A stretch of 61,360 nucleotides of DNA, counting the filler. It is 3 parts of 3 records of this genome, joined end to end, with 100 filler letters (N's around TTAATTAATTAA, not from the genome) between each part and the next. Parts side by side here need not be neighbours in the genome. Positions count along the whole stretch, not along the records: positions 1 to 28,703 come from SRR20825019_1433; 2 more parts are not named here. One strand, written 5' to 3'. A program made the translations under genes and the position numbers. This document shows positions 20,079-57,614 of this stretch, piece after piece (position 1 is the stretch's first letter; the number at the start of each line of letters is the position of its first letter). Under the pieces are notes generated by a model. That model did not search any database, was not told the DNA's origin, and saw only the letters and a program-made list of their open reading frames with translations.

Positions 20079-21152
20079 ATGAAAAATAGAGTCTTGTTTT
20101 TGATGATTGCCACTGTGGCAATGTTCAGGGTAAATGCCCAAAATAACGATACCAAGATAATTTTGATAACGTTGGACGGTTTCCGTTGGCAGGAATTATT
20201 TACAGGAGCCGATTCCCTTTTGATTGGTAATAAGGATTATGTTCACGAACCCGAAATGTTGAAAAAAGCTTTCTGGAGAGACACCCCATCTGAAAGAAGA
20301 GAAGCGTTGTTGCCCTTTTTCTGGAGTCAAGTGGTAAAAATGGGCCAGATTCATGGAAATCGAAAGTTGGAAAGCAAAGTAGATTTGACCAATTCCATGT
20401 GGTTCTCTTACCCGGGTTACAACGAAATTTTGACAGGAACTGCAGATGATAAAAACATCCGAAGTAATGACAAAATACCGAACCCCAACACAACAGTTTT
20501 AGAGCTTTACAATAACGCCGCCGAAGGAAAGGGCAAAGTCGCTGCCTTTGGTAGTTGGGATGTGTTTCCATCCATCATAAATGAAGAGCGGTCAGGAGTT
20601 CCCGTCAATGCGGGTTTTGAGTCAGCTATTGGAAACCTGAATGAAAGGGAAAAGTTTCTCAACCAATTGCAGAACCAGATACCCAGTCCATGGGGCTCGG
20701 TCCGGTTGGATGCATTTACGCATCATTATGCTTTGGAGCACATGAAAAAGGAACATCCAAAATTGGTTTTCATTTCCTACGGAGAAACCGATGATTTTGC
20801 CCATGATGGGGATTATCAAGCCTATTTAAAATCGGCCCACAATACCGATGGGTTGATCAAGGAGGTATGGGAGTTTACCCAACAAGATGATTTTTATAAG
20901 GACCAGACCGTGTTTTTGATCACTACGGACCATGGGCGTGGAACAGAGCCCTTGGATACTTGGAGAAGCCATGGCAGCGACATCAATGGGGCAGGCTCCG
21001 TTTGGATGATTGCTTTTGGAAAGAATGTTGATTCCAAAGGAGAAGTAAAGGAGGAAGAACAATTATACTCCAACCAGATTGCACCGACCATTTTAAGGAT
21101 ATTGGGAATACCCTTTCCAAAGGAAATCGAGGGAAAACCCATGAAATTATAA
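20079..21152 (+). CDS. Exported alkaline-phosphatase-superfamily metalloenzyme
   Basis: Signal peptide; ITLDGFRWQE, FSYPGYNE, TDDFAH, TTDHGRG motifs. Confidence 0.82.
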   Translation: MKNRVLFLMIATVAMFRVNAQNNDTKIILITLDGFRWQELFTGADSLLIGNKDYVHEPEMLKKAFWRDTPSERREALLPFFWSQVVKMGQIHGNRKLESKVDLTNSMWFSYPGYNEILTGTADDKNIRSNDKIPNPNTTVLELYNNAAEGKGKVAAFGSWDVFPSIINEERSGVPVNAGFESAIGNLNEREKFLNQLQNQIPSPWGSVRLDAFTHHYALEHMKKEHPKLVFISYGETDDFAHDGDYQAYLKSAHNTDGLIKEVWEFTQQDDFYKDQTVFLITTDHGRGTEPLDTWRSHGSDINGAGSVWMIAFGKNVDSKGEVKEEEQLYSNQIAPTILRILGIPFPKEIEGKPMKL

Positions 21153-21197
21153 GTTTAAGTTCGTTTGATTCAGTTTATTAGTTTGCGTAACCGCAGT

Positions 21198-21230
21198 AGA
21201 CCCGTGCCATTGGTACGGGTCTTGTTTTTT
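21198..21230 (+). terminator. Rho-independent terminator ending the susC operon
   Basis: AGACCCGTGCCA-T-TGGTACGGGTCT followed by TGTTTTTT. Confidence 0.85.
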
Positions 21231-21294
21231 GGTATCTCCCAAGAAGTTTCGTTTTTACTAAAATGGTTACCTTAGAGGAACGTATTTTTATCAC

Positions 21295-21927
21295 ATGAAA
21301 GAAGAGCTTTTAGCAACATTCAGCAACCATTTTGAACAGCCCCTTATCGATGAAATCCTAGAAGAAGGGAGATTAATGGAAGTTCCTGCGGGCGAGACCA
21401 TAATGGACATTGGGCAGTACATCCGAAGTATACCCTTATTGTTGTCGGGAGCAATTAAAGTGCTTCGGGAGGATGAGGAGGGAGATGAACTACTGCTATA
21501 CTATCTGGAACAAGGGGAAACCTGTTCGGTGACCATGGCCTGCTGTATGGGGCAGACCAAGAGCGAGATCAGGGCAATTACGGAAACCGATACTAGATTG
21601 GTCATGGTCCCTGTTCAAAAAATGGAAGAGTGGATGGGCAAGTACAAAGGTTGGCGAAACTATGTTTTCGAAAGTTATCAGAACCGCCTGAACGAGCTGC
21701 TACAGACCGTGGATAGCATTGCATTTAAAAACTTGGACCAAAGACTGGTTGATTATCTTAAAAAGAAGGTTGAGGTTACGAATGACAACCAAATAAGAAA
21801 TACCCACCAAGAAATAGCATACGATCTCCATACTTCAAGAGTTGTGGTTTCCCGATTGCTAAAAAAACTGGAAAAAATGAAGAAGTTGGAACTGCATAGA
21901 AATTACATTCAAATTGTGAATCTCTAA
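21295..21927 (+). CDS. CRP/FNR family transcriptional regulator
   Basis: cNMP-binding-like domain with CSVTMACC; HTH THQEIAYDLHTSRVVVSRLLKKLE. Confidence 0.92.
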   Translation: MKEELLATFSNHFEQPLIDEILEEGRLMEVPAGETIMDIGQYIRSIPLLLSGAIKVLREDEEGDELLLYYLEQGETCSVTMACCMGQTKSEIRAITETDTRLVMVPVQKMEEWMGKYKGWRNYVFESYQNRLNELLQTVDSIAFKNLDQRLVDYLKKKVEVTNDNQIRNTHQEIAYDLHTSRVVVSRLLKKLEKMKKLELHRNYIQIVNL

Positions 21928-21930
21928 GTT

Positions 21931-21975
21931 TGTGCCCTTTGTTACTGTGGATTGCCATTAGGCAACCTATTTTTG
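21931..21975 (+). promoter_or_regulatory. CRP/FNR-type box plus -7 promoter element upstream of sulP
   Basis: T-GTGCC-CTTT-GTTAC (21931-21945), 22-nt spacer, TATTTTTG (21968-21975). Confidence 0.7.
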
Positions 21976-21990
21976 CATAAAACCAATTGC

Positions 21991-23724
21991 ATGCTCAAAA
22001 GGATATTTCCTTTTTTATCATGGATTACCAACTATGATCGCTCAAAGTTAAATAGCGATTTAGTGGCAGGTCTTACAGTGGGAATCATGTTGATTCCTCA
22101 AGGTATGGCTTATGCCATGATTGCTGGAATGCCCCCTATTTATGGATTGTATGCTGCATTGGTGCCCCAACTTGTCTATGCCTTAATGGGAACTTCAAGG
22201 CAGTTGGCCGTTGGGCCCGTGGCCATGGATTCATTATTGGTGGCAGCAGGTGTAGGAGCCTTGAATTTAATCAACAAGGAGGACTATATCACAACGGTAC
22301 TTTTCCTGACTTTGCTTATCGGGGGTCTGCAATTGCTTATGGGAATATTCAAAATGGGGTTTTTTGTCAATTTTTTGTCCAAACCGGTCATAAGCGGGTT
22401 TACATCGGCTGCGGCACTTCTTATAGGTTTTGGTCAATTGAACCATATTTTGGGAACCAACTTTGCACAGTCAGGAAGAATACATGAACTTTTAGCGAAT
22501 ATATTCCGAAGCTTGCCCTACATTCACTGGCCTACATTTGTTATGGGTTTGGGATCCATACTATTTATAGTTCTGTTGAACAGATTCAATAAAAAATTAC
22601 CAGTGCCTCTGTTCTTGGTGGTATTGGGCATTTTGGCCGTGGTTATTTTCAGTCTTAATACGTTGGGAATCCATATTGTGGGAGATATCCCAAAGGGACT
22701 TCCCGGTTTTCAGGCCCCTGAGTTCCAGTGGGACAAGATGGGGCAACTTATGCCCATAGCCATAACCGTGGCCCTCTTCGGATTTATGGAATCCGTTTCC
22801 ATAGCCAAAACGGTAGAGGAAAGGCATCCCGAGTATGAATTGGACCCCAACCAAGAACTCCGAGCATTGGGTATTGCCAATATTTTAGGTTCATTCTTCC
22901 AGTCCTTTTCGGTATCGGGAAGTTTTTCAAGAACCGCCGTGAACGACAAAGCAGGGGCAAAAACAGGAATGTCATTGATTTTTAGCACCCTGATTATTGC
23001 AGGGGTGTTACTTTTTCTTACCCCTTTGTTCTATAATCTTCCAGCAGTGGTGTTGGGGGCCATTATTATTGTTTCGGTATCGGGTCTCATCGATTTAAGA
23101 TATCCGTGGGTACTTTGGAAAAATAGAAAGGATGAATTCCTGTTGTTGGTCGCCACTTTTTTGATGACACTGTTCATTGGGTTGATGGAGGGAATCCTTT
23201 TCGGGGTATTATTGTCCTTAATGTTGTTGGTCTACCGGATATCCAAGCCACATATGGCGGTATTGGGAAGAATCAAGGATACAAGCTATTTTAAAAATAT
23301 AGATCGCTTTTCGGGCGATGTGGAGGTGGAAGCCGATAAACTGGTGATACGTTTCGATGCCCAATTATATTTCGGCAACAAGGATTATTTCAAAAAGCAA
23401 CTATACCGGCAGATTGCAAAAAAAGGTCCGGTACTTAGGTATATCATTTTAAATGCCGAACCTATCAATTACATTGATAGCAGCGCCGCTTCCATGTTGG
23501 AGCGTATCATCTTGGATTTAAGGCACCGTGACATCCACTTTTTGATAGCAGCGGCCATAGGTCCAACAAGGGATATTTTGTACAGTAGCGGAATTGTGGA
23601 TATCCTTGGGGAAGAGAACCTGTACGTACAAACAATCGATGCCGTGAACGGTTGTTCCGAACAGAGTGAAAGGAGCTTTATGCAGAAAAAAGTGTCCCTA
23701 CAGTCCAAAAACAAGAGTTTGTAA
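21991..23724 (+). CDS. sulP: SulP/SLC26 anion permease with STAS domain
   Basis: DLVAGLTVGIMLIPQGMAYA, GSFSRTAVN, STAS motif YIDSSAA. Confidence 0.93.
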   Translation: MLKRIFPFLSWITNYDRSKLNSDLVAGLTVGIMLIPQGMAYAMIAGMPPIYGLYAALVPQLVYALMGTSRQLAVGPVAMDSLLVAAGVGALNLINKEDYITTVLFLTLLIGGLQLLMGIFKMGFFVNFLSKPVISGFTSAAALLIGFGQLNHILGTNFAQSGRIHELLANIFRSLPYIHWPTFVMGLGSILFIVLLNRFNKKLPVPLFLVVLGILAVVIFSLNTLGIHIVGDIPKGLPGFQAPEFQWDKMGQLMPIAITVALFGFMESVSIAKTVEERHPEYELDPNQELRALGIANILGSFFQSFSVSGSFSRTAVNDKAGAKTGMSLIFSTLIIAGVLLFLTPLFYNLPAVVLGAIIIVSVSGLIDLRYPWVLWKNRKDEFLLLVATFLMTLFIGLMEGILFGVLLSLMLLVYRISKPHMAVLGRIKDTSYFKNIDRFSGDVEVEADKLVIRFDAQLYFGNKDYFKKQLYRQIAKKGPVLRYIILNAEPINYIDSSAASMLERIILDLRHRDIHFLIAAAIGPTRDILYSSGIVDILGEENLYVQTIDAVNGCSEQSERSFMQKKVSLQSKNKSL

Positions 23725-23764
23725 CTTTGGTGACTGAACTTACGGATGCAGAATACTATATTTG
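23720..23764 (+). promoter_or_regulatory. CRP/FNR-type box plus -7 promoter element upstream of the MBL-rhodanese gene
   Basis: T-GTAAC-TTTG-GTGAC (23720-23734, contains the sulP stop codon), 22-nt spacer, TATATTTG (23757-23764). Confidence 0.78.
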
Positions 23765-23779
23765 AAAAAACTGGAAAAC

Positions 23780-25195
23780 ATGAAAATAGAACAGATATAT
23801 ACAGGCTGTCTTGCACAAGGCGCCTACTACATAGAAAGCGCAGGAGAAGCGGCAATAATCGACCCGCTAAGGGAAATCGACCCCTATTTGAAAACAGCAA
23901 AGGAAAGTGGAGCAAAGATCAAATATATTTTTGAGACACACTTCCATGCCGATTTTGTAAGCGGCCACCTTACGTTATCCAAAGAAACCGGAGCGCCCAT
24001 TGTATACGGTCCTACCGCTGAACCTTCATTTGAAGCTATTATTGCTAAAGATCAGCAGGAGTTTAAACTGGGTAAAATCACCATAGTGGCATTGCATACA
24101 CCCGGTCACACCATGGAGAGCACTACCTATTTGTTGAGGGATGAAAATGGAAAGGACCATGCCATTTTTAGTGGGGACACCTTGTTCCTTGGAGATGTTG
24201 GCCGTCCGGATTTGGCCCAAAAAGCGGCCCATATGACCCAAGAAGAATTGGCAGGAACCTTGTTCGATAGTCTGCGCAACAAGATTATGCCATTGGCCGA
24301 CGATGTTATTGTATATCCTGCCCACGGCGCTGGTTCCGCATGCGGAAAAAACATGATGAAGGAAACCGTGGACACCTTGGGCAACCAGAAAAAGATGAAC
24401 TATGCCCTTAGGGCGGATATGACCCGTGATGAATTTATTGATGAAGTGACCGAAGGTCTTTTGCCACCACCACAATATTTCCCACTCAATGTAAAAATGA
24501 ACAAAGAGGGTTACGAGGATATTGATAAAGTATTGGAAAGAGGCACCCAAGCCCTTGCCCCAGATGCCTTTGAAGCGGCCGCCAATGAAACAGGTGCCGT
24601 TGTACTCGATGTGCGCCATCAAGATGATTTTGCCAAAGGGCACGTGCCACGTTCCATATTTATTGGGCTGGACGGTAGTTTTGCCCCATGGGTGGGAGCA
24701 TTGGTAGCCGATGTAAAGCAACCGATACTTTTGGTGACTCCCGAAGGTAGGGAGGAAGAAACCATCACTCGATTGTCTCGTGTTGGGTTTGACCATACCT
24801 TGGGCTTCTTAAAAGGCGGAATCGAGGCTTGGAAGGCAGCAGGAAAAGAAACGGATACCGTGGACAGCATCAATGCCGAAGAGCTTAAAGAATTAATAGA
24901 AGAAAAAGAGGAGGTTCCGGTATACGATGTCCGCAAGGAATCGGAATACCAAGCAGAGCACGTGGAAAATGCAAACTTGACCCCTTTGGATTACATCAAC
25001 GACCACCTATCGGAATTTCCGGAAAAAGAAACCTTTTATGTTCATTGCGCAGGAGGATATCGTAGTATGATTGCCTCTTCCATCTTAAAAAGTAGAGGGA
25101 TTCATAATTTAGTGGATGTAGCTGGTGGTTTTGCCGATATTAAAAAGGCTGGAATACCCGTTACGGACTATGTTTGCCCCACAACACTGAAATAA
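23780..25195 (+). CDS. Persulfide dioxygenase-like MBL-fold hydrolase fused to two rhodanese domains (CstB/Blh-like)
   Basis: ETHFHADF, HTPGHT, GDTLFLGDVGRPDL, PAHGAGSACG; C-terminal rhodanese active loop CAGGYRS. Confidence 0.88.
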   Translation: MKIEQIYTGCLAQGAYYIESAGEAAIIDPLREIDPYLKTAKESGAKIKYIFETHFHADFVSGHLTLSKETGAPIVYGPTAEPSFEAIIAKDQQEFKLGKITIVALHTPGHTMESTTYLLRDENGKDHAIFSGDTLFLGDVGRPDLAQKAAHMTQEELAGTLFDSLRNKIMPLADDVIVYPAHGAGSACGKNMMKETVDTLGNQKKMNYALRADMTRDEFIDEVTEGLLPPPQYFPLNVKMNKEGYEDIDKVLERGTQALAPDAFEAAANETGAVVLDVRHQDDFAKGHVPRSIFIGLDGSFAPWVGALVADVKQPILLVTPEGREEETITRLSRVGFDHTLGFLKGGIEAWKAAGKETDTVDSINAEELKELIEEKEEVPVYDVRKESEYQAEHVENANLTPLDYINDHLSEFPEKETFYVHCAGGYRSMIASSILKSRGIHNLVDVAGGFADIKKAGIPVTDYVCPTTLK

Positions 25196-25235
25196 GTCCA
25201 AATCCCACTGGAAAATTGATTAAAAAGATGGGCTG

Positions 25236-25280
25236 TGTAACCGTGGTTACTGACAGCCATGGGTTGTATGAAGTACTTTG
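25236..25280 (+). promoter_or_regulatory. CRP/FNR-type box plus -7-like element upstream of the rhodanese gene
   Basis: T-GTAAC-CGTG-GTTAC (25236-25250), 22-nt spacer, GTACTTTG (TTTG at the same offset as the other sites). Confidence 0.72.
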
Positions 25281-25301
25281 GTCTCACAAAACAATGAGAC
25301 T

Positions 25302-25646
25302 ATGTCAATACTCGGTTTTTTGTTCAAAGAACATAACCTTCCCGATGAAATCCAGATAATGGATCGGGAAGAATATAGAAAAGCCATATCCCGCGGAAAG
25401 GTGCAGTTGGTGGATGTGAGGACCAGGGCGGAGTTTGCTTCTGGCCACATCAATGGAGCCAAGAACATTGATTTTTTTCAAGGTTCCGCTTTCGAATCAG
25501 CATTTTCCAAGATGAAGAAAGATGCCCCGGTATTTATTTATTGCCAATCCGGAAACAGAAGCCAAAAGGCAGCCAAACGATTGGTAGAATTGGGCTTCGC
25601 CAAAGTGTGCGACCTTAGGGGAGGCTACAGAAACTGGTGCTATTAA
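25302..25646 (+). CDS. Single-domain rhodanese (sulfurtransferase)
   Basis: LVDVRT..EF..GHI.GA, active loop YCQSGNRS, DLRGG. Confidence 0.92.
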   Translation: MSILGFLFKEHNLPDEIQIMDREEYRKAISRGKVQLVDVRTRAEFASGHINGAKNIDFFQGSAFESAFSKMKKDAPVFIYCQSGNRSQKAAKRLVELGFAKVCDLRGGYRNWCY

Positions 25647-25658
25647 ATTCATGTTGCT

Positions 25659-25925
25659 GTGCAAACTACTTTTCAAGTACAAAACTTAAAATGCGGAGGT
25701 TGTGTAAAGAGCATCTCCAACAAACTTTCTGAGATAAAAGAAATTAAAAATGTGATTGTGGATAAGGAAAGCTCATCGGTTAGCTTTGATCATCAAAGCG
25801 CCGATGATGCTTCCTTGATTAAAGAAGCCCTTAAACGCATGGGCTATCCCACCATTGATGACGAAAATGGTTTTGGGGACAAGGCAAAATCGTTTGTAAG
25901 TTGCGCGAGTGGAAAGTTGGCTTAG
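25659..25925 (+). CDS. Heavy-metal-associated (HMA/CopZ-like) domain protein
   Basis: NLKCGGC motif, MGYP, C-terminal SFVSCASG. Confidence 0.85.
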   Translation: MQTTFQVQNLKCGGCVKSISNKLSEIKEIKNVIVDKESSSVSFDHQSADDASLIKEALKRMGYPTIDDENGFGDKAKSFVSCASGKLA

Positions 25926-25940
25926 GTAATTAGATGGAGA

Positions 25941-26819
25941 TTACCCTTTATCTTTTTTTCTAAAACCGGATACTGATTGACCCCAGAATCTCTTCGGAAG
26001 TTTTTCATCACCGGGAAACCCCAACTCTATTTTACCGTCGCTTTCGGGAATATAATTTGTTCGGAATATATAATCCCAAAGACTCAGGCTAATTCCAAAA
26101 TTCATTCCATAGCGATGCCCCTCGGGAAGATTATAGGCGTGGTGGTACAGGTGCATCACCGGATTGTTCAGTATATACTTTAAAGGACCATAGGTCAGTT
26201 TAATGTTCGAATGATTAAAGTGTCCAATGGCAATGGCAGCAAAATGGACAATGTAGGCTTGTTCGGGTTCAAACCCTCCGAGGACCATCAATCCCAAAGT
26301 TTTTAAGGGTTTGTAAAGAACATTTTCCATCCAATGGAAACGCATGTGGGCAGCGAAGCCCATTTCCTTCACGCTATGGTGTACTTTATGAAATTCCCAA
26401 AAAGCAGGGACCCTGTGCAATAGGATATGAGTGAACCATTGAACAAAATCGAGCACTACAAAAAACACAAGCAACTGAACCCATTGGGGCCAATTGGCAA
26501 TATCCACAATGGCCAAAGATTTTGAAGTAATTCCGAAATCGTTAAAAAGTATCGTCAAAACTTTATAAACCCCGTTTATAATGATGGCGAATACAAAGAA
26601 ATTGAAGAACATATAAAATATATCCAGCCAAAAGTCCTTTCTAAAAATGGATTGTTCCTTGCGCCATGGAAAGAGGATTTCCAGCCCCCATACCAAGAGT
26701 GAGATAAGAATCAAACCCCAAAAATAATTGGTGTACCAGGGAACATCAAAAATAATGGATCTCCAGGTCCATTGGACCATTCCTAAAAACCCGTTGACCA
26801 AAGCATCAATATATTTCAT
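25941..26819 (-). CDS. Sterol desaturase / fatty-acid hydroxylase family membrane di-iron enzyme
   Basis: His boxes HILLH, HKVHH, HFNH, HLYHH; NFGISLSLWD; start at MKYID. Confidence 0.88.
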   Translation of the reverse strand: MKYIDALVNGFLGMVQWTWRSIIFDVPWYTNYFWGLILISLLVWGLEILFPWRKEQSIFRKDFWLDIFYMFFNFFVFAIIINGVYKVLTILFNDFGITSKSLAIVDIANWPQWVQLLVFFVVLDFVQWFTHILLHRVPAFWEFHKVHHSVKEMGFAAHMRFHWMENVLYKPLKTLGLMVLGGFEPEQAYIVHFAAIAIGHFNHSNIKLTYGPLKYILNNPVMHLYHHAYNLPEGHRYGMNFGISLSLWDYIFRTNYIPESDGKIELGFPGDEKLPKRFWGQSVSGFRKKDKG

Positions 26820-26824
26820 CACAG

Positions 26825-27277
26825 CTAGTTTAGCTCGTACCATTCAATATCCTCCAGATTTTGGCGGCGGCCTTTATCGGTAGGAGCATAGTTTTTGGCC
26901 AAATAGGTCAAAATCAATTCCTCATTAGCGCCCAAATCCCAAAGGTTCTGGGTTTCTTGCATCCATTCTATAGTAGCTTTCCACCCTTCCCTGCTCATTC
27001 GGTTTTGGGTGACCAATTTTGCGGAGTGACAGGCGGTACAATTTTGTATGGTCTCCTGCATTCCTCTATCATCAATAAAACCTGTGGCCACGTGGATACC
27101 GTTTTCTACTTTGTCGTAATCTTCAGAGGATACTTCCAAAGGAATTTCCGTTATTTCAGGTTTTGATTTGTGGTTTGCCCAATAGTATAAACCACCGAAC
27201 AATACCAAGATCAAAATCAAAAAAGAAAGTAAGCTTTTGGAAAGTGAACGCACCTGCTTTTGAAACTCCTTGCCCAT
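26825..27277 (-). CDS. Membrane-anchored monoheme cytochrome c (SorB-like electron acceptor)
   Basis: N-terminal TM helix, CTACH heme motif, WMQETQNLW; directly downstream of the sulfite oxidase. Confidence 0.85.
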   Translation of the reverse strand: MGKEFQKQVRSLSKSLLSFLILILVLFGGLYYWANHKSKPEITEIPLEVSSEDYDKVENGIHVATGFIDDRGMQETIQNCTACHSAKLVTQNRMSREGWKATIEWMQETQNLWDLGANEELILTYLAKNYAPTDKGRRQNLEDIEWYELN

Positions 27278-27278
27278 G

Positions 27279-28499
27279 TTACACAATTTTAACGGCTATA
27301 CGATGGCAAGCATTGTTGAGATAGCCTTTTGGGTTCCACCCCGGAAGTACCATTGGTTGCGCTTTTCCGTTGGTGTCCGTAGCCCTTCCCCACACCTCGT
27401 AATAGCCCTTTTTGGGAAATGATACCGTTGCGTTGAAATGTTGCCAAGCCAAACGGTTTTTGGGTCTTTTAAGGGAACAGGTATGCCAAGTACTGCCAAA
27501 ATCGATGGAATACTCCATTTTTGAAACCTCAAGTTCACCTGCCCACGCATGGCCATTGATGTTCAATGTTTGGCCCTGTTTGATCAGTGCTCCACTTTTT
27601 GGGTAGGTTATCAAGGACTTTACCGGCATGGACTCTATGATGCACATATCAGAATCTTCGACCTTGCTGCCCGGGGCAACAGTTTCGCAAGGGACACGGT
27701 ACGAGGTGCCCCCCATTTTTTCACCATCGTGCACTTTATTTCTGATACTGATTCGATTGACCCATTTCCCCGACGTGGAGGCGGGCCACCCCCCACAGAC
27801 CAATCGCAATGGAAAACCGTGTGCCAATGGAATATCCTCCCCGTTCATGGCAAAAGCGAGCAAGGTTTCATCTTGAAGTGCTTTCCAAATTGGAACGCCC
27901 CTGGAGATAGGTTCCTTATTTGGGTCGCCACTCAAATGGGTATCCGTGGCATGGTAGCCAATATAAACGGCGTCGGAATTGATTCCTGCATCTTCAAGGA
28001 CATCGCGAAGCCTTACTCCGGTCCATTCGGCACAAGAAACCGCTCCGACAGTCCATTGATTGCCCTTTGCGGGTGGATTGAACTCACTTCGGCCATTTCC
28101 ACCACATTCCAAAGTCAATTGATAGGTGTAGTGTTGGAACTTATCTTTTAAATCTGCCAGGGAATAGGTTTTTTTGTTTTTGACGGACTCACCATCTAAG
28201 GTCAATGTCCATTGGGAAGCTTCAATATTCTCAGGAATTCTTCCATTGTTGCGAACGAACATATATTTGTTGGGAGTAATGTCATCGTTCAACAAATGGG
28301 CCTGAGCCTCCATATTCCATGGTTTGTTGTTGAGCACAACCATTTCCTTGTCTTTGTGGAACATTTTAAAGGGATCGGGATCCTGTAGGCCTAGTGGTCG
28401 ATATCCTTTTGGCATCCGATGGCCATATACGATCTCTAAACCCAATATACTGGCCACGGCCGCCAACGAAATTTTGTTTGTAAAACCTCTTCTGTTCAT
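27279..28499 (-). CDS. Sulfite oxidase family molybdoenzyme (SorA/SoxC-like)
   Basis: Tat-like NRRGF; FVRNNG, Mo-ligand Cys in TLECGGNGR, HGFPLRL, GKWV, dimerisation domain, GYLNN. Confidence 0.92.
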   Translation of the reverse strand: MNRRGFTNKISLAAVASILGLEIVYGHRMPKGYRPLGLQDPDPFKMFHKDKEMVVLNNKPWNMEAQAHLLNDDITPNKYMFVRNNGRIPENIEASQWTLTLDGESVKNKKTYSLADLKDKFQHYTYQLTLECGGNGRSEFNPPAKGNQWTVGAVSCAEWTGVRLRDVLEDAGINSDAVYIGYHATDTHLSGDPNKEPISRGVPIWKALQDETLLAFAMNGEDIPLAHGFPLRLVCGGWPASTSGKWVNRISIRNKVHDGEKMGGTSYRVPCETVAPGSKVEDSDMCIIESMPVKSLITYPKSGALIKQGQTLNINGHAWAGELEVSKMEYSIDFGSTWHTCSLKRPKNRLAWQHFNATVSFPKKGYYEVWGRATDTNGKAQPMVLPGWNPKGYLNNACHRIAVKIV

Positions 28500-28512
28500 T
28501 CAGGTCAAAATT

Positions 28513-28586
28513 TAAATGTATCATAAAAATAAACAAAGCTATGTAACCAAGGTTACCGGACAATCCGTGATGAACCGTTACTTTTG
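28513..28586. promoter_or_regulatory. Single CRP/FNR-type box serving two divergent promoters
   Basis: GTAAC-CAAG-GTTAC (28543-28556); TACTTTTG on + strand at 28579-28586 and TACATTTA on - strand at 28520-28513, each 22 nt from the box. Confidence 0.78.
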
Positions 28587-28677
28587 AAGTAAATATTTGA
28601 AAATCAATAAGAGGCAAGGTGCAAGCTGATACGATTTTTGAAAATAAGTTGTATGCAACAATCATAAACTATCCATT

Positions 28678-28703
28678 ATGAAAAAAAATATGGGCGGTGC
28701 AGA
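28678..28703 (+). CDS. 5' end of a probable DUF2892 (YgaP-like membrane) protein, cut by contig end
   Basis: ATG AAA AAA AAT ATG GGC GGT GCA GA = MKKNMGGA(D/E), the usual DUF2892 start; only 8 full codons visible. Confidence 0.55.
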
Positions 28704-28803
28704 NNNNNNNNNNNNNNNNNNNNNNNNNNNNNNNNNNNNNNNNNNNNTTAATTAATTAANNNNNNNNNNNNNNNNNNNNNNNNNNNNNNNNNNNNNNNNN
28801 NNN
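28704..28803. other. Artificial contig spacer
   Basis: 44 N + TTAATTAATTAA (28748-28759, stop codons in all frames) + 44 N. Confidence 0.98.
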
Positions 28804-49872: not shown

Positions 49873-49972
49873 NNNNNNNNNNNNNNNNNNNNNNNNNNNN
49901 NNNNNNNNNNNNNNNNTTAATTAATTAANNNNNNNNNNNNNNNNNNNNNNNNNNNNNNNNNNNNNNNNNNNN
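49873..49972. other. Artificial contig spacer
   Basis: 44 N + TTAATTAATTAA (49917-49928) + 44 N. Confidence 0.98.
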
Positions 49973-50161
49973 CAGGATATCGGGGACTGGGACACCTCGA
50001 AAGTGGAAAGTATGACTCTGATGTTTCTTGGTGCAAGCGCTTTCGACCGGGATATCTCGGATTGGAACGTAGACAATGTGAGTTCTTGTGAATATTTTAG
50101 TGATGGGACCTCCTCCGAATGGACTTTAGACGAAAAGCCTGGATTGACCTGTTCTCATTAG
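49973..50161 (+). CDS. 3' end of a DUF285/BspA-type repeat surface protein (not in the ORF track)
   Basis: Hand translation: QDIGDWDTSKVESMTLMFLGASAFDRDISDWNVDNVSSCEYF...KPGLTCSH*. Confidence 0.85.
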   Translation, partial: QDIGDWDTSKVESMTLMFLGASAFDRDISDWNVDNVSSCEYFSDGTSSEWTLDEKPGLTCSH

Positions 50162-50186
50162 AACTTAAGTTGGCACACAGATACTC

Positions 50187-50212
50187 AAAAGGCCCCGACA
50201 AAGGGGCCTTTT
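50187..50212. terminator. Rho-independent terminator
   Basis: AAAAGGCCCC-GACAAA-GGGGCCTTTT. Confidence 0.82.
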
Positions 50213-50390
50213 GGGAATCACGTGATTTCTTGCTATCAGAAAAAAGCATACTGGTTGTAAAAGCGGTCGCGGTATCCACACGAAACGGAAAAGAGTGAGC
50301 ATGGTAAAACACAAATAAGTGACTGATTAATATAAAATCAAGGTATTTCAATTTATCCGCCTTTAGCGGTTCTCATTTTCCGTCCCTTCC

Positions 50391-50690
50391 AATGAAATAA
50401 CGGAGTGGATGAATTATTTTGTACAGACCGTTCTTGAGGCACAAATAGATACCGAACAAGAAATCGAGTTCACTTTAAAAAAGACCAAGTTCTTTGATCA
50501 GCACGAGGATAGTTTCAATGATCGTCAAGAGAAAGCGGTTCGTCACATGTTGGACGAAGGGAATAAAGGCTTTGAAGGTGTGATGAACGCACGAAAATAC
50601 GTTTCATTGACAGGAACATCCAAAGCCACGGCCACTAGGGATTTACTGGATGGGATGGATTGTGGGAGCCACCAAGAACGGCAAATTTGA
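50391..50690 (+). pseudogene. C-terminal remnant of a Fic-family protein with HTH
   Basis: NEITEWMNYF...NDRQEKAV..ML..G..GFEG.MNARKY..LTGTSKATATRDL; no Fic catalytic domain upstream; tail diverges. Confidence 0.7.
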
Positions 50691-50909
50691 ACCACCAAAC
50701 ATTTTGTTGTAGCAGGTTGTACGTCAGTTCTTTGTTGGCTGTATTACTATGCTCACTCTTTTCCGGCGAGGGTGGTATTCTATGTCCGTTTTTAACAACA
50801 TGACTGTAAATTGAAGATATACCCCTTATGAAAATTAACCTTTTGTTAAACGGCTTATGTTACAGTATGAAAAGGCAAATTATAAACTTTACCATCTAAA
50901 TTTCGGGTT

Positions 50910-51479
50910 TTGGATAGTTTGGAATCGACCTCTGATCAATTTCTTTTTCAAGAAATCAAAAAGGGTAACAAAAAAGCGTTCAATAGGCTTTTTGAGACCC
51001 ATTGGGATGGGTTGTACCAAGCTGCCTATAAAGTTTTGTTGAGTGAGGATATGGCCAAGGATGCGGTTCAAGAGGTTTTTTTTGATCTTTGGTTGCGCAA
51101 ACTTCAACTTGAGGTCGAAAATATACCGGGATTCCTTTATAAGGCTGTACGAAATCAATCACTGAAACAATTGAGGAAAAACGCTCCTTTGCAAATTCAC
51201 GAAGATAGATTTAAGGAGCTGTTGGTCAACACCACCCAAGAACAGTTGGACCTTATTGACCTTAAAACAAAATTGGGGGAAAAGCTGGGTGCCCTGTCGC
51301 CAAGGGAAAGAGAAATATTTGAAATGAGCCGGTATCAAAACCTGTCCAATAAAGAAATTGCAAACCACCTTAATCTTTCGCAAAGAACCGTTGAATGGTA
51401 TTTGTATCAAGTTGTTAAGGAACTTAAAACCGCGTTGACCGTCTCTGTTCTTGTTATCCTATCCTACCTTTTCTATTGA
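50910..51479 (+). CDS. ECF RNA polymerase sigma factor (Bacteroidetes SusC-linked type)
   Basis: AKDAVQEVFFDLW region 2; REIFEMSR..LSNKEIA..LNLSQRTVE region 4. Confidence 0.92.
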   Translation: MDSLESTSDQFLFQEIKKGNKKAFNRLFETHWDGLYQAAYKVLLSEDMAKDAVQEVFFDLWLRKLQLEVENIPGFLYKAVRNQSLKQLRKNAPLQIHEDRFKELLVNTTQEQLDLIDLKTKLGEKLGALSPREREIFEMSRYQNLSNKEIANHLNLSQRTVEWYLYQVVKELKTALTVSVLVILSYLFY

Positions 51480-51634
51480 TTTACCGCTGATGTTACCAGC
51501 TTTTAAAATCAGTGATATGAGTCCATCATCCGTCAAGGTTACCTTAAGGTTAGCTGTGTTATCTATGGGTTAAATCCAAGTATTGGCCCCAGTAAATGTT
51601 CTTTGTTGGGGTACTTATAGGTAAAAGCACAGCC

Positions 51635-52603
51635 ATGGATAAATCAAAATTGATTGATTTACTTTCAAAATATGATAAGGGTACCTGCACCAAGGAAGAA
51701 CTTGTACTGCTGTATCGCTTCTTCGATGCTTTCCAAGATGATAACAATATTTGGGACACGAAAGGAATTGTTGAGAAAGAGCGAATACGAAAGGAATTAT
51801 CAAAAAAAATAAAACAAAGAATCGATTTTCAGGAAAGGAATCGAAAATCCATCTCTCCCTTGTGGAAGGTGGCCGCCGCAATACTTTTTGTCATTGGGTT
51901 GGGGGCAATGACCAAAATGCTTCTTTTCCAAAAAGAGCAGCCCATCGAATATGAACGGATCGTTTCAAATGATATGGGAATCAAGGAGGTTGCATTGATG
52001 GATGGATCCACGGTCTGGTTAAACCGGAACAGCGAACTGGTCGTTGCCAAAAAGTTCATGGAATCCGAATTTAGGGAGATCACCTTGCATGGGGAGGCAT
52101 TCTTTGAAGTGGCAAAAATCAAAAACAGGCCATTTATCGTCCATTCCAGTGGCTTTCAAACCAAGGTATTGGGCACCAAATTCAATGTAAAGGAATCCAA
52201 CGAAAGAACGGATGTCGCATTGATTGAAGGAAGCGTCGAGGTCAATGCAAATGCCGAGCAGGTATTGTTGAAACCCATGGAAAAGGCAGTGTTCGGCCAT
52301 GGAAATGACAGTATCGCGATTGTTGAAATGGACATGGAGCTGGAACTCGCTTGGATGACCAATGATTTCGATTTTAAAAACACCAAACTATCCCGGGTCG
52401 CCACCATGCTGGAACGGCGGTTTCATAAAAAGATAACATTTGAACAATCCGGTATGGCCGAAAAAAAAGTGACCGGACATTATGAGAATGAAAGCCTCAA
52501 TGCCATTCTGCTTTCCGTGACCCAGGCCGGCAACTTGGATTACAAATACAATGACAAACAGCACATACTGATTTTTAAACCCCTAAAAAATAATTCCATG
52601 TAA
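51635..52603 (+). CDS. fecR: FecR family anti-sigma factor
   Basis: TM helix; LMDGSTVWLN, GEAFFEV, VLGTKFNV; start at MDKSK. Confidence 0.92.
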   Translation: MDKSKLIDLLSKYDKGTCTKEELVLLYRFFDAFQDDNNIWDTKGIVEKERIRKELSKKIKQRIDFQERNRKSISPLWKVAAAILFVIGLGAMTKMLLFQKEQPIEYERIVSNDMGIKEVALMDGSTVWLNRNSELVVAKKFMESEFREITLHGEAFFEVAKIKNRPFIVHSSGFQTKVLGTKFNVKESNERTDVALIEGSVEVNANAEQVLLKPMEKAVFGHGNDSIAIVEMDMELELAWMTNDFDFKNTKLSRVATMLERRFHKKITFEQSGMAEKKVTGHYENESLNAILLSVTQAGNLDYKYNDKQHILIFKPLKNNSM

Positions 52604-52621
52604 AAAGAGAGCCATAAAAAA

Positions 52622-52643
52622 GGGAAGCGCTCCAACGCTTCCC
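52622..52643 (+). promoter_or_regulatory. Hairpin in the fecR-susC intergenic region
   Basis: GGGAAGCG-CTCCAA-CGCTTCCC preceded by an A-run. Confidence 0.5.
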
Positions 52644-52732
52644 CATGAAATTAATTCGTACGAGCAAAAAATGATAATGTAGTGAAAATACATTTGAACC
52701 ACTTTTTTAATGAAAAAATTCCAACTAAAACT

Positions 52733-55700
52733 ATGAAAAAAAATGAACATGATTTTAGAAAACTTCTAATGAAACTTACTTCAGTTTATATATTGCTGGC
52801 ATTGGGTCTTCAAGGGGTTTTGGCCAATGGGGCCAATGCGCAATCTTTGCGAAGCACAGAAATCTCCCTTGAACGCGGTTCCTATACGGTACGCAATATT
52901 CTCAACAACGTAGAAGACCAGACTGATTTCAACTTTACCTATTATGAAAGTGAAGTTGATTTGGGCGCTGCATATTCAATTGACAGAACCTACGATTCAT
53001 TATTTGACCTATTATATGACCTATCCTTGGAGAAACATTTTCGTTTCAATAGAATCAACAAATCCATTGCGATATCCAAAATACAGCAGAAAAAAAAGGA
53101 ACCGGAAATTGTGGAACAATTGCAGGTAAGTGGGGTGGTGCTGGATGAAAACGGACAGCCTTTGCCAGGTGCGACAATCGTTGCAAAAGGAAGCAGCATC
53201 GGTACCACTACCGATTTTGATGGAAACTTTGAGGTCGCGGTAAATTCAGATGCCACTTTGTTGGTATCGTACATTGGTTATTTGACCAAGGAAGTCCCTG
53301 TCAATGGACAGACCTCGATGACCATCAGTCTTCAATTGGATACCCAGAAACTGCAAGAGGTCGTTGTGATAGGGTATGGCACCAGCTCAAAAGAAAAAAT
53401 ATCCGGAGCGGTAACCAGCATGGATCAAGAGGAGATCCAACAGTATTCCAATGCCAATTTTGATCAGGCCATCGTGGGGAAACTTGCGGGTGTAAATATT
53501 CTGACCAATGCGCGGAACCCCGGTGATGGCAACACGATTACCATCAGAGGGGCGGGATCCATTACACGGGATGCCAATCCATTGGTGGTGGTTGACGGCT
53601 TTCCATTGGCAGAGGGCAGCTCACTGAATGTAATAAATCCCAACGATATCGCATCCATAGATGTGATCAAGGATGCTGCCTCCGCAGCCATATATGGATC
53701 TCGTGCAGCCAATGGGGTTATCATGATCACCACAAAAAAGGGCAAGGGGAAAAAGTTGACCGTTGAACTTCGTTCTGTTATGGGGCTTCAGGAAAAAACA
53801 GGAAGCTACGATTTGTTGAATGCTTACGATGCAGCTAAATTTTTTAGGGATGGTCGTAACAATGCGTATCTAAAAAACCATGGTAACGTGGGTGTCAACG
53901 ATTCGGAGGAACAGCGTATTGCCAATGGGGCGAATGTCCGAGAGCTCATTTTGGATTACACGGTGCCCTATTTGAACAATGAACCTGGGTTGACAGATTT
54001 CGATTGGGAAGACGCGGTATATAGGACAGGCCTGGTACAGAACCACTATGTGAACATTTCCGGATCCACCGAGGCCACCAATTATGCTGCTTCATTGGGT
54101 TATACCAATGAGGAAGGCATCGTGATTACGGCAGATCAGAAACGCTATACCACCAATTTAAAACTGAATACGAAACTTGGAAAATATTTTAAGTTCGGTA
54201 TAAACCTAAATGGATACTATGCGGAAAGAGGGCTGACCAATGGCGGGAATGGATACCGTTTCCCCATTGACCCCGCGGGAAGGGCAATGGTGTACATGTT
54301 CCCATTTTTTTCAGCCTATGATGACACCAACCCTACGGGCTACAACATCGAGGCGCAGATATTGGCCAATAGGCCCTATAATGCTAATATGCAGGAAAAC
54401 CCTGTGGCAATGTCCGAATTGTCCAAATACGATAGAAGGGAGTTCAGGACTTTTGGCAACACCTACCTTTCTTTTGAACCAATCGATAATTTGGTGCTGA
54501 AAACATCCCTGGGATATTTGTTAGAGTCAAAGTTTACCGATCAATACGCACCCATGCTTACCGGTTCGTATAGACGATTGATCAGTGAAAGGGATTCCAA
54601 CCAAGGTTCGGAAAGCAGAAGCGACCAAGGGGACATACTTGTGGAAAATACGGCGAACTATACCTTCGATATCGGAAAGCATTCCTTCAATGCCCTATTG
54701 GGACAGAGTTTCCAGAAAAGTTCATACACATCGCTATCAGTGAACGGATATGATTTTCCAAACGATATCATTCAGAATATAGATGGATCCACGGAACAGA
54801 CCGCATCAGCTTCTCGCAGCAAGTGGACACAGCTTTCCTATTTCGGGAGGATATTGTATGATTATGATGACCGTTATTTTCTCTCTGGGTCCATTCGTAC
54901 CGATGGGTCGTCAAGATTTGGAAAGGACAATAGATATGGAACTTTTAGTTCTTTCTCCGCTGGATGGGTGTTGAGCAATGAATCCTTTTTTCCTGAAAAT
55001 GACATTTTAACCTATGCAAAGCTGCGATACAGCTGGGGGCAGACAGGAAATAACCAAATAGGGAACTATGCCCAATATGCCTCTATCAGTACAGGAAGGG
55101 ATTATCCCTATGACGGTACCCTTTCCCCAGGGGCCGCGCCTTCCAGTGCGCCTTCATATTCGTTGGGTTGGGAGACCAATACATCGAACAACTTCGGTGT
55201 TGATCTTGGTTTTTTCAACAAAATAAATTTAGGGGTCGATTATTATATAGCGGATATTTCGGACCTGCTATTGGACAGGCCGGTTCCCAAGCATACAGGT
55301 TTTAACAGTTCACTTCAGAACATCGGCGAAATGCGGAACAAAGGATGGGAATTTGAGCTCAATGGATCCAATTTCAATATTGGTGGTCTTTCTTTGGGGT
55401 TCAATGCAAATCTGACCACCAATGAAAATGAGATCATTTCTTTGGGCGGTGCCGATGAACTCTACGAAGGAGGCAATCAAAGGTTTATAACCAGGGAAGG
55501 GGAGTCATTGGCCAATCTATACGGCTATAAAATCATTGGACTTCTAAAATCCGAGGAAGAGGTGGCCGAATATAAGAGCAGGAAGAACACCACATTGTCC
55601 GCTGAAGTTGGGGATTATATTTTCCAAGATACCGATGGGAATGACATTATTGATGCTGATGACAGGGTGCTCCTTGGGGATTATAACCCCGAAGTGACCT

Positions 55701-56209
55701 ATGGATTTGGAATTGATCTAGCTTATAAGGGATTTGATCTGAACCTGAACTTTAATGGAACGATGGGGAGGGTAGCCTATGATTTGATGACCTCTAATTA
55801 TTTGGAATATGGGGAAGCCTTTACCAATACAAACTACAATTATTTCAACAACTATTGGGACCCTGTAAGCAATCCCGAGGGCTATTTGGCACCGCCGGAT
55901 GCCTACGGGAACACCGCGACCCGTAAGGCCAGCAGAAATCCCACAAGCTATAATGTTTTGGACGCGGATTATCTCAGGTTGCGAAGTGTGCAGTTGGGAT
56001 ACAATTTGCCTTCCGGTGTTTTGGACCAATTTCACTTGCAGGCCATGCGCGTTTATGTTTCGGCGAACAATCTCCATACATGGACCAAGTACAGGGGCAT
56101 GAACCCTGATGGCGGGTATACGGGCAATCCGCTTGATAGGGGATATATACAAGGAACCACATCGGTGCCAAGGCTTATTTCCGTCGGCATCAATCTAACA
56201 CTTCAATAA
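52733..56209 (+). CDS. susC: SusC/RagA TonB-dependent transducer with N-terminal signalling extension
   Basis: N-terminal extension before the carboxypeptidase-like domain; INPNDIASIDVIKDAASAAIYGSRAANGVIMITTKKG. Confidence 0.94.
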   Translation: MKKNEHDFRKLLMKLTSVYILLALGLQGVLANGANAQSLRSTEISLERGSYTVRNILNNVEDQTDFNFTYYESEVDLGAAYSIDRTYDSLFDLLYDLSLEKHFRFNRINKSIAISKIQQKKKEPEIVEQLQVSGVVLDENGQPLPGATIVAKGSSIGTTTDFDGNFEVAVNSDATLLVSYIGYLTKEVPVNGQTSMTISLQLDTQKLQEVVVIGYGTSSKEKISGAVTSMDQEEIQQYSNANFDQAIVGKLAGVNILTNARNPGDGNTITIRGAGSITRDANPLVVVDGFPLAEGSSLNVINPNDIASIDVIKDAASAAIYGSRAANGVIMITTKKGKGKKLTVELRSVMGLQEKTGSYDLLNAYDAAKFFRDGRNNAYLKNHGNVGVNDSEEQRIANGANVRELILDYTVPYLNNEPGLTDFDWEDAVYRTGLVQNHYVNISGSTEATNYAASLGYTNEEGIVITADQKRYTTNLKLNTKLGKYFKFGINLNGYYAERGLTNGGNGYRFPIDPAGRAMVYMFPFFSAYDDTNPTGYNIEAQILANRPYNANMQENPVAMSELSKYDRREFRTFGNTYLSFEPIDNLVLKTSLGYLLESKFTDQYAPMLTGSYRRLISERDSNQGSESRSDQGDILVENTANYTFDIGKHSFNALLGQSFQKSSYTSLSVNGYDFPNDIIQNIDGSTEQTASASRSKWTQLSYFGRILYDYDDRYFLSGSIRTDGSSRFGKDNRYGTFSSFSAGWVLSNESFFPENDILTYAKLRYSWGQTGNNQIGNYAQYASISTGRDYPYDGTLSPGAAPSSAPSYSLGWETNTSNNFGVDLGFFNKINLGVDYYIADISDLLLDRPVPKHTGFNSSLQNIGEMRNKGWEFELNGSNFNIGGLSLGFNANLTTNENEIISLGGADELYEGGNQRFITREGESLANLYGYKIIGLLKSEEEVAEYKSRKNTTLSAEVGDYIFQDTDGNDIIDADDRVLLGDYNPEVTYGFGIDLAYKGFDLNLNFNGTMGRVAYDLMTSNYLEYGEAFTNTNYNYFNNYWDPVSNPEGYLAPPDAYGNTATRKASRNPTSYNVLDADYLRLRSVQLGYNLPSGVLDQFHLQAMRVYVSANNLHTWTKYRGMNPDGGYTGNPLDRGYIQGTTSVPRLISVGINLTLQ

Positions 56210-56218
56210 AAAAGCATT

Positions 56219-57595: not shown

Positions 57596-57614
57596 ACTAA
57601 AATCAAAAAACCAA

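Follow-up and report, generated by a model that had tools for sequence, protein, structure and literature searches.

The primary sensors of reactive sulfur species listed in the passages of a 2026 review covered here (PMC13467558) belong only to the CsoR, ArsR and Fis families, with MarR/OxyR-type regulators as secondary sensors, and the targets named for such sensors and for the sulfide response are sulfide:quinone oxidoreductase (SQR), persulfide dioxygenase (PDO), sulfurtransferases, TauE, YeeE and cytochrome bd. Here we describe a locus in which a gene set of this kind accompanies a CRP/FNR-family regulator. It occupies the 3' end of the first contig (1-28703, GC ~0.43) of a 61,360-nt stretch of DNA, hereafter the window, and comprises the gene of a 210-aa regulator (21295-21927, + strand), sulfur genes, and four exact or degenerate copies of a palindromic box, TGTAAC-N4-GTTAC, each followed at 22 nt by an element resembling the Bacteroidetes -7 promoter element TAnnTTTG.

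The system resembles class II activation by CRP and FNR of E. coli in its two-domain fold, its 16-bp palindrome (TGTAA-N6-TTACA here, TGTGA-N6-TCACA there), the arginines R180 and R185, and the computed position of the site at -41.5. It differs in that Glu181 of CRP is Val in the regulator, A takes the place of the second G of the CRP half-site, and neither the cAMP contact E72 nor the N-terminal cysteine cluster of FNR is present. The partner polymerase, moreover, carries a Bacteroidetes sigma-A, with a -7/-33 rather than a -10/-35 promoter, and the regulon is one of sulfur oxidation rather than of carbon or anaerobic respiration. HcpR2 is a CRP/FNR regulator of hcp predicted in Clostridia, Bacteroides, Thermotogales and Treponema; according to the passages covered (Rodionov et al. 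2005, PMC1274295), its predicted consensus is GTAACnnnnGTTAC, it mostly regulates only hcp, the adjoining gene, and its predicted signal is nitrosative stress. This predicted consensus is identical to that of the boxes here, and HcpR2 shares with our regulator the superfamily and the loss of Glu181; the DNA motif itself is not new, having been predicted for HcpR2 in 2005. However, as far as those passages go, HcpR2 has Pro at position 181 instead of Val and targets hcp instead of sulfur genes. Membership of HcpR2 was rejected on residue 181 and on context, since the annotated neighbour families, the 47 commonest, include no hcp family. CstR with the cst operon of S. aureus, SqrR/BigR and FisR share with the locus, as described in the passages covered, their target set (CstB-type PDO-rhodanese, rhodaneses, SQR, TauE and YeeE) and conserved cysteines in the regulator. 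These proteins have CsoR, ArsR and sigma-54 AAA+ folds, whereas Pfam finds only CRP/FNR domains in our regulator; CstR and SqrR are repressors, and FisR works through sigma-54 and activates from afar rather than from -41.5. Within the CRP/FNR superfamily, FLP of Lactobacillus casei and CprK of Desulfitobacterium are thiol-switch proteins gated by cysteine redox. Their cysteines stand at other positions, their signals are general oxidation or chlorophenol, and they are not known to be linked to sulfur-oxidation genes. The nearest solved relative is an uncharacterised Crp/Fnr regulator (PDB 3dv8, E 2e-16), which keeps the equivalents of C77 and C83 but has Glu at the 181-equivalent (S-H-R-E-V-I-T-R).

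Searches of full-text literature found no paper linking a CRP/FNR regulator of Flavobacteria with genes for persulfide or sulfide; papers behind a subscription and RegPrecise-type databases lay outside their scope, so an earlier description may exist. Together with the list in PMC13467558, limited to the passages covered, these searches back the statement of a first-pass annotation of the window, which knew of no characterised CRP/FNR-type persulfide sensor in Flavobacteria. Xia et al. 2017 counted 194 type III PDO genes in 185 Bacteroidetes genomes, and the passages covered mention no regulator. From the analysis below we consider it likely, though well short of certain, that the 210-aa protein is a dedicated class II activator of a sulfide and reactive-sulfur regulon of Flavobacteriaceae, and that it senses sulfane sulfur through C77, C83 and C84. 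Its branch of the CRP/FNR family would then have taken on a new physiological role and, probably, a sensing chemistry that is also new.

Boxes and promoter geometry

A profile made from the regulator aligned with 29 relatives (40-88% identity) was used in one search of genome contigs, and at least 80 Flavobacteriaceae loci were collected from about 30 named genera and from metagenome-assembled genomes labelled only to family or above. With regulator identities of 54-92% and up to 10 kb on each side, they total 1,424,156 nt. The exact core, GTAAC-N4-GTTAC, occurs 186 times in these loci, against a mean of 1.1 and a maximum of 6 for 59 composition-matched control palindromes built from permutations of the same five letters, an enrichment of more than 100-fold. 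At least one exact box is present in 75 of 80 loci. The full arrangement proposed for the window by the first-pass annotation, i.e. box, 22-nt spacing and TAnnTTTG element, is conserved beside the orthologous regulator in 74 of the 80. The boxes stand ahead of a coherent set of sulfide, persulfide and sulfite genes in at least 74 species-level genomes.

The boxes are also linked to the regulator gene. Across the 52 loci whose flanks are complete, the stretch from 1 kb upstream of the regulator start to the downstream end of the locus holds 126 exact boxes, against only 4 in the distal 9 kb upstream; the richest kilobase, with 30 boxes, is the one around the regulator and its stop codon, with the peak right after the stop. 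Nearly all exact boxes (184 of 188, the window's two included) lie outside open reading frame (ORF) calls, while 41 of 101 one-mismatch matches lie inside ORFs and are probably noise. An origin of the palindrome in a repeat or mobile element was rejected, as the copies are intergenic and promoter-oriented and have no common flanking sequence. We regard the comparative evidence, as a statement about sequences, as decisive for the observation.

The same data bear on which protein recognizes the boxes. Flavobacteria carry many CRP/FNR paralogues (7,832 matches at E <= 0.001 among 8,000 scored candidates in a word-filtered search), and the motif is common to HcpR2 as described in the passages covered; both would suit boxes that belong to a factor encoded elsewhere, or that are a promoter-associated repeat without a regulatory role. 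The crowding of boxes beside the regulator gene (126 against 4 in the two flanks), their position within ~15 nt of its stop codon in most genera, the fit of a CRP-like recognition helix to a palindrome of CRP geometry, and the enrichment over controls all argue otherwise, and we hold this the least likely of the explanations considered, with a very small probability. The adjacent CRP/FNR protein, which the first-pass annotation had nominated, is instead supported as the probable cognate factor by the conservation in 74 of 80 loci, the placement ahead of sulfur genes and the retention of the arginines of its helix-turn-helix (HTH).

In the window, TGTAAC-N4-GTTAC was scored as the box consensus and TAnnTTTG as the -7 element, and sequence search with read-back recovered all four boxes of the first-pass annotation, at 21931, 23720, 25236 and 28542. 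Box 1 (21931-21945, TGTGCCCTTTGTTAC, TGTGCC-CTTT-GTTAC) lies 3 nt past the regulator stop codon in the sulP promoter, and its -7 element TATTTTTG is at 21968-21975 (+). Box 2 (23720-23734, TGTAACTTTGGTGAC, TGTAAC-TTTG-GTGAC) overlaps the sulP stop codon and belongs to the persulfide dioxygenase promoter, with TATATTTG at 23757-23764 (+). Box 3 (25236-25250, TGTAACCGTGGTTAC, TGTAAC-CGTG-GTTAC), in the rhodanese-HMA promoter, precedes GTACTTTG at 25273-25280 (+). Box 4 (28542-28556, TGTAACCAAGGTTAC, TGTAAC-CAAG-GTTAC) is common to two divergent promoters, with TACTTTTG at 28579-28586 (+) on one side and, on the other, TACATTTA at 28513-28520 (-), an element with one mismatch that stands 13 nt ahead of the SorA-like ATG at 28499. 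The last box had been said to serve the sulfite oxidase operon on the other strand as well, which agrees with this minus-strand element of the sulfite dehydrogenase operon promoter. The exact 22-nt spacing is seen at all five promoters, four on the plus strand and one on the minus strand. The description as four copies of one palindrome needs qualification: boxes 3 and 4 are exact, but box 2 has one mismatch and box 1 has two, as a decayed site. Likewise, a TAnnTTTG-like element does follow each of the four boxes, but the third is imperfect, with TTTG in register and TA displaced by 1 nt.

Within-contig statistics for the boxes are modest. The exact core occurs twice in the 28,703-nt contig, both times within this locus; there are two one-mismatch matches, box 2 and another at 12438 without -7 context, and 16 two-mismatch matches, of which box 1 is one and is therefore not significant by itself. 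Over the whole window, 19 matches have at most two mismatches, compared with 10.8 +/- 4.0 in shuffles, and 1 of 100 shuffles attains 19.

Comparison with relatives places the individual boxes. Past the regulator gene, neither the Flagellimonas loci (L001-L005) nor the Robiginitalea loci (L006-L008) have a box with fewer than two mismatches. The window and L001-L005 share a degenerate site there, with the GTTAC half intact or nearly so, the -7 element in register and the 22-nt spacing, and most other genera have a perfect box within ~15 nt past the regulator stop, ahead of TauE, SulP, rhodanese, peroxiredoxin or dioxygenase. Because position and spacing are kept in relatives, we take box 1 to be an orthologous but weakened site. 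Box 2 in its one-mismatch form also precedes the orthologous dioxygenase gene in L001-L008, the box-to-SorA arrangement of the window recurs in L006, L007, L012 and L026, and in L002, L009, L022 and L026 a box facing both ways separates the YgaP-TM gene from SorA or FAhyd. As for autoregulation, the interval 21153-21294 of the window has no box at up to two mismatches, and a single GTTAC half-site lies upstream of the regulator. In other genera a box does stand upstream of the regulator or of a DUF983-regulator pair, and 13 of 83 regulator genes are in box-driven operons.

A small hairpin, TTGCCATTAGGCAA at 21952-21965, fills the spacer between box 1 and its -7 element; it has a similar counterpart in L002 and none in L003, and is probably incidental. 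The leader of the DUF2892 gene (28587-28677) is unusually long, with a predicted length of ~87 nt compared with 9-17 nt at the other four promoters. At this gene the distance from box to ATG is similar in L002, and Rfam finds nothing in that leader.

The spacing between box and promoter element is strict across the loci. Of the 186 exact boxes, 167 have TAnnTTTG, with no more than one mismatch, at offset 22, while each of the other offsets from 10 to 40 gives at most 9; for perfect elements the figures are 90 of 186 at offset 22 and 0-3 at any other offset from 0 to 72. The first-pass annotation had taken TAnnTTTG for the Bacteroidetes -7 element, and a transcription-start map of Flavobacterium psychrophilum, in the passages covered, does place a sigma-A TAnnTTTG box at -12 to -5 (PMC9723704). 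Given that position and the 22-nt spacing, GTAAC would occupy -48 to -44 and GTTAC -39 to -35, with the dyad centre at -41.5 when the start is inferred, as here, from another genus; the predicted value is close to the -41 of the first-pass annotation, which had drawn class II geometry from it. A logo of 214 distinct oriented promoters has an extra T at -51 and -49, as well as T at -34 and G at -33, which each reach 58% and are confined to the promoter side. Among 198 candidate promoters of these loci that have no box, 20% carry G at -33. The consensus of the -33 element is TTTG/TTG. The asymmetric 'TG' suggests a remnant of it, in which case the polymerase would dock directly beside the factor, as in a class II arrangement.

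Whether a factor at this place activates or represses can be weighed from the same geometry. A repressor acting on the same sites would occupy the -33 region, block sigma-A, and be released by sulfane-sulfur modification of its cysteines, as CstR and SqrR/BigR are; the box spans -48 to -35 and so overlaps the expected place of the -33 element, and the dedicated persulfide sensors of the CsoR and ArsR families described in the passages covered are repressors released by cysteine modification (PMC13467558). Yet the preference for 22 nt in 167 of 186 cases speaks for a need of face-of-helix contacts with RNA polymerase, whereas occlusion tolerates a range of distances, and only the 'TG' of the -33 element is kept beside the box, so that the promoters look activator-dependent rather than intrinsically strong. 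Sites of CRP/FNR-family proteins at -41.5 are, in addition, typically activating. Repression is accordingly improbable in our estimate.

In the mechanism we favour, activation, a regulator dimer would bind the 16-bp CRP-type site TGTAAC-N4-GTTACA. The site, predicted to be centred at -41.5, would abut the residual -33 'TG' 22 nt upstream of the sigma-A -7 box, and the bound regulator would activate transcription in the class II manner. Five promoters in the window would be served: those of sulP, the CstB-like dioxygenase-rhodanese, the rhodanese-HMA pair, DUF2892, and the divergent SorA-cytochrome c-FA_hydroxylase operon. In relatives the factor may also drive SQR, TauE, YeeE/YedE, cydAB, 1-Cys peroxiredoxin and thioredoxin.

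The regulator and its proposed signal

The regulator is 100% identical to a Crp/Fnr protein of Flagellimonas marinaquae and 79-99% identical to those of other Flagellimonas/Muricauda. Residues 29-116 form a cNMP-binding-type beta-roll domain (PF00027, 38.8 bits, cut-off 27.5), and a Crp-type HTH is recognized by PF13545 (30.3 bits, cut-off 27), with PF00325 slightly below its cut-off (20.4 bits against 21). Over its length the protein can be aligned with structures of CRP and NtcA; it matches CRP in the PDB at E ~1e-10, and the HMMER alignment to E. coli CRP spans residues 16-205. Identity with the named family members was rejected in each case. For CRP proper, E72 has become Val or Met and R82 Lys, with S83 kept, and NF008732 scores 61 bits against a cut-off of 266; for FNR, no Cys precedes residue 77 and NF008365 scores 24.8 bits against 228; NtcA and FtrB fall far under their NCBIfam cut-offs.

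The recognition helix fits the box. S181-R182-V183-V184-V185-S186-R187 pairs with S179-R180-E181-T182-V183-G184-R185 of CRP, and R182 and R187, the equivalents of CRP R180 and R185, are invariant in 84 orthologue sequences. The residue at 183, equivalent to CRP E181, is Val in 81 of 84 and Glu in 3. The box in its TGTAA-N6-TTACA form has the geometry of the CRP site, with A replacing the second G of TGTGA. In CRP, Glu181 reads that G:C pair, and substitutions of Glu181 shift specificity to A:T. According to the passages of Rodionov et al. covered (PMC1274295), CRP residues 180, 181 and 185 contact DNA, and loss of Glu181 accompanies a GTAAC-N4-GTTAC motif; as that study ties residue 181 to the same motif, Val at the equivalent position matches the change of half-site.

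The sensory domain carries conserved cysteines. C77 is conserved in 84 of 84 orthologue sequences, C83 in 80 and C84 in 79. In the alignment their CRP counterparts are I70, F76 and E77, around the phosphate-binding cassette G71-E72...R82-S83, in which E72, the ribose contact, is replaced by Val or Met. In our proposal, the signal would be sulfide-derived sulfane sulfur (persulfide or polysulfide), which would switch the regulator on through C77, C83 and C84 around the degenerate cassette. Beyond the orthologues, among 140 full-length representatives of the wider family (50% clustering), C77 is present in 139, which suggests that near-invariant C77 may serve a common sensing principle well beyond the sulfur loci of Flavobacteriaceae. 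These representatives come from a wider CRP/FNR branch of 245 clusters at E < 1e-30 (proteins P0122-P0271), and at residue 183 they have Glu in 90 cases and Val in 44.

Some loci hold a second paralogue of the regulator (L015:16974-17618, L018:6019-6609 and L023:15730-16368), with Glu at the 181-equivalent and without C83 and C84; in L015 and L023 the DUF2892 gene follows directly downstream of it. This paralogue may act as a further regulator that recognizes another half-site. These three paralogues are the only Glu183 variants among the orthologue sequences, a small sample for co-variation between HTH and motif.

The factor might also control the same genes and sense something else, such as sulfite or thiosulfate in the former cyclic-nucleotide pocket, or O2, NO or H2S through a haem or Fe-S cluster on its cysteines, after the manner of CooA, DNR, HcpR and FNR. 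K/R89 (76 of 84) and S90 (84 of 84) stand at the positions of the phosphate-binding R82 and S83 of CRP, the regulon includes a sulfite exporter, a sulfite dehydrogenase and a thiosulfate-type transporter, and cytochrome bd, a target in some genera, also fits low-O2 control. Three cysteines and an acidic residue can hold a cluster, as in Bacillus subtilis Fnr. The DNA motif, too, is that of HcpR2, although HcpR2, in the passages covered, has Pro at 181 and the regulator Val, and no hcp-type family is among the 47 commonest annotated neighbour families. The scores of the FNR, CRP and NtcA equivalog models far under cut-off and the lack of the N-terminal FNR cysteine cluster also count against such an effector, and the main target is an O2-consuming dioxygenase, a poor fit to anoxic induction. 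We consider another effector unlikely.

Several findings weigh against sulfane-sulfur sensing class II activation as we propose it. In the window itself, box 1 with its two mismatches and the -7 element of box 3 are weak, and a site overlapping the -33 region could repress as well as activate; the figure of -41.5 depends on a -7 consensus position that was mapped in another genus, in the part of that study covered. Five of the 80 loci lack an exact box (L005, L044, L055, L056 and L068), and in the first four of these the regulators keep all three cysteines and Val183. L068, the only full-length locus that has neither boxes nor sulfur genes, has a regulator that keeps Val183 but lacks C83 and C84, a single case on the side of the proposal; these boxless loci and the Glu183 variants fit the pattern only loosely. 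K/R89, Lys in the window, and S90 are retained, which would be as compatible with an oxyanion ligand as with a thiol switch. In the wider family, a second Cys within residues 81-86 is found in 102 of 140 representatives, and a two-cysteine switch therefore cannot be general to it. Since the consensus reported for HcpR2 in the passages covered is identical, the sites could be shared by a paralogue that has the same recognition helix and is encoded elsewhere in the genome. Finally, the ORF calls behind the operon tallies are crude (ATG-only, at least 60 aa, greedy), and the tallies are approximate.

More tentatively, and at a little below an even chance in our judgement, the regulator may represent a fourth structural class of dedicated reactive-sulfur sensor, the first for Bacteroidota. 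This would be a CRP/FNR activator in which a cysteine triad (C77, C83 and C84) replaces the phosphate cassette, reads persulfide or polysulfide or holds a cofactor that reads H2S, and recruits sigma-A polymerase from -41.5. Throughout Flavobacteriaceae such a sensor would switch on SQR, the CstB-type dioxygenase, rhodaneses, sulfite/thiosulfate transporters, sulfite dehydrogenase and the sulfide-resistant cytochrome bd. That the protein binds, whether it activates or represses, what it senses and how its cysteines react we infer from the sequence; the sites, their geometry and conservation, their linkage to the regulator gene and the content of the regulon are established in silico.

Genes of the locus and of its relatives

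The gene identities given in the first-pass annotation agree with Pfam and NCBIfam. Downstream of the regulator (PF00027, PF13545 and PF00325), on the plus strand, are a 577-aa SulP-family anion transporter with a STAS domain (21991-23724; PF00916 and PF01740; TIGR00815 498.7 bits, above cut-off) and a 471-aa persulfide dioxygenase (23780-25195). The dioxygenase has the CstB-type architecture, an MBL-fold dioxygenase domain (PF00753) followed by two rhodanese-type domains (two PF00581 stretches), with full-length matches to PDB 3tp9 (E 3.7e-70) and to PDB 3r2u (E 2e-53), which we take to be S. aureus CstB. Next come a 114-aa single-domain rhodanese from the ATG at 25302 (25302-25646; PF00581) and an 88-aa HMA-domain protein with a C-G-G-C motif (25659-25925; PF00403). 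On the minus strand, the SorA-type molybdopterin sulfite dehydrogenase catalytic subunit (27279-28499, 406 aa; PF00174 and PF03404) scores 229.7 bits with the SorA model, under the equivalog cut-off of 600. It is followed by a membrane-anchored, SorB-like mono-haem cytochrome c with a C-T-A-C-H motif (26825-27277, probable start ATG 27277), a weak match to SorB (NF052246 28.7 bits, below cut-off), and, last in the operon and overlapping the cytochrome gene by 19 nt, a 300-aa membrane protein of the fatty-acid-hydroxylase superfamily (25941-26843; PF04116).

The contig ends within the YgaP-like transmembrane (TM; DUF2892) gene on the plus strand (28678-28703), of which the first 8 codons (MKKNMGGA...) are present; the N-terminus MKKNMGGAD matches 68-aa PF11127 YgaP-like TM proteins in the same place in L001, L002 and L004. 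The locus had been called self-contained, and this did not hold: the contig breaks off 26 nt into this gene, and in relatives the regulon continues with further boxes, ahead of SQR, YeeE, cydAB, peroxiredoxin and TauE. In the closest relatives, boxes past DUF2892 lie ahead of SQR (L002 and L004), near cydA (L002) and ahead of an efflux operon (L001), and the window regulon is therefore truncated.

Regulon content in relatives was assessed by clustering 1,388 proteins with BLASTP and annotating representatives of the 47 largest clusters with Pfam, which leaves out rare families. Counts are of loci out of 81, the window included, and shares of genes in box-driven operons come from following the genes downstream of each oriented box. 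The most frequent families are the MBL dioxygenase with two rhodanese domains (PDO-Rhd2), in 61 loci and box-driven in 68 of 72 cases, TauE/SafE (46 loci; 40 of 46) and single rhodaneses (35 loci; 37 of 39). FA_hydroxylase is found in 24 loci (box-driven 8 of 23), SulP in 21 (9 of 22), the YeeE halves in 21 and 19 (YeeE 17 of 21), and HMA in 18 (17 of 18). Twelve loci each have the 1-Cys peroxiredoxin (10 of 12), the cytochrome c-Tll0287-like protein (12 of 12) and the SQR flavoprotein (8 of 12), which matches human SQOR at E 8e-100. The TPMT-type methyltransferase (10 of 11), thioredoxin (8 of 11) and the YgaP-like TM protein (DUF2892; 9 of 11) are each in 11 loci, the cytochrome bd subunits in 10 and 8 (CydA 4 of 10), and SorA in 8 (5 of 7). 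The regulon is the gene set named for reactive-sulfur sensors and the sulfide response in the passages of PMC13467558 covered. The boxes precede the same sulfur genes in relatives, which supports the suggestion of the first-pass annotation that the targets probably form a pathway from persulfide through sulfite to thiosulfate or sulfate.

Other families recur behind boxes. The gene of the FA_hydroxylase/sterol-desaturase-superfamily protein commonly closes the SorA operon or directly follows a box. Proteins of clusters 10 and 22, such as L035:11377-12378 and L007:15681-16292, have a Tll0287-like domain, which in some of them is joined to cytochrome c; 12 of 12 and 6 of 7 members of the two clusters belong to box-driven operons. 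This is a haem-PAS-like family for which we know of no sulfur link. Boxes also lie ahead of DsrE, DoxX and c43 operons in L040, L057, L060 and L067, of OEP/HlyD (TolC/HlyD-type) efflux operons in L001, L028, L033 and L052, and of methyltransferases (TPMT and PEMT-like) in some genera. The regulon appears to be enlarged differently from lineage to lineage, and methylation and export of sulfur or selenium/tellurium species may be among the additions.

Upstream of the regulator, an intrinsic-terminator-like hairpin with a T run (21198-21222, +; 11-pair stem with 7 GC pairs, tail TGTTTTTTGG) separates its gene from an upstream phosphatase-type gene. Terminator-like sites are not enriched in number (8 against 8.9 in shuffles), and this hairpin is the sole convincing one. 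A sigma-70 promoter scan gave 17 sites against 15.7 +/- 3.7 in shuffles and was uninformative, as expected for Bacteroidetes. An Rfam scan of 20500-28703 at gathering thresholds gave no matches, and therefore no known riboswitch or small RNA accounts for the conserved intergenic sequence. The three contigs of the window are joined by N44-TTAATTAATTAA-N44 at 28704-28803 and 49873-49972. The middle contig (28804-49872) has a GC content of ~0.59, against 0.43 in the other two (the third is 49973-61360), and encodes mraZ, rsmH, ftsI and murE; because of this difference in GC and these genes, it is probably from a different organism, through a mixed bin or a contaminant.

Significance for Flavobacteriaceae

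Flavobacteriaceae are major marine degraders of algal and particulate organic matter and meet both sulfide and organic sulfur, and the control of their sulfide detoxification has so far been undescribed. If the proposal holds, the regulator would add a new sensor architecture, one that activates rather than represses, and would offer a clean natural model of class II activation at Bacteroidetes sigma-A promoters. A position weight matrix of box, 22 nt and -7 box could then be used to annotate sulfur-stress regulons in hundreds of genomes, and the regulator would be a candidate part for sulfide biosensors in Bacteroidota. The regulon also gives a physiological context to conserved proteins, namely DUF2892/YgaP-TM, HMA, the Tll0287-like cytochrome and the FA_hydroxylase-family protein.

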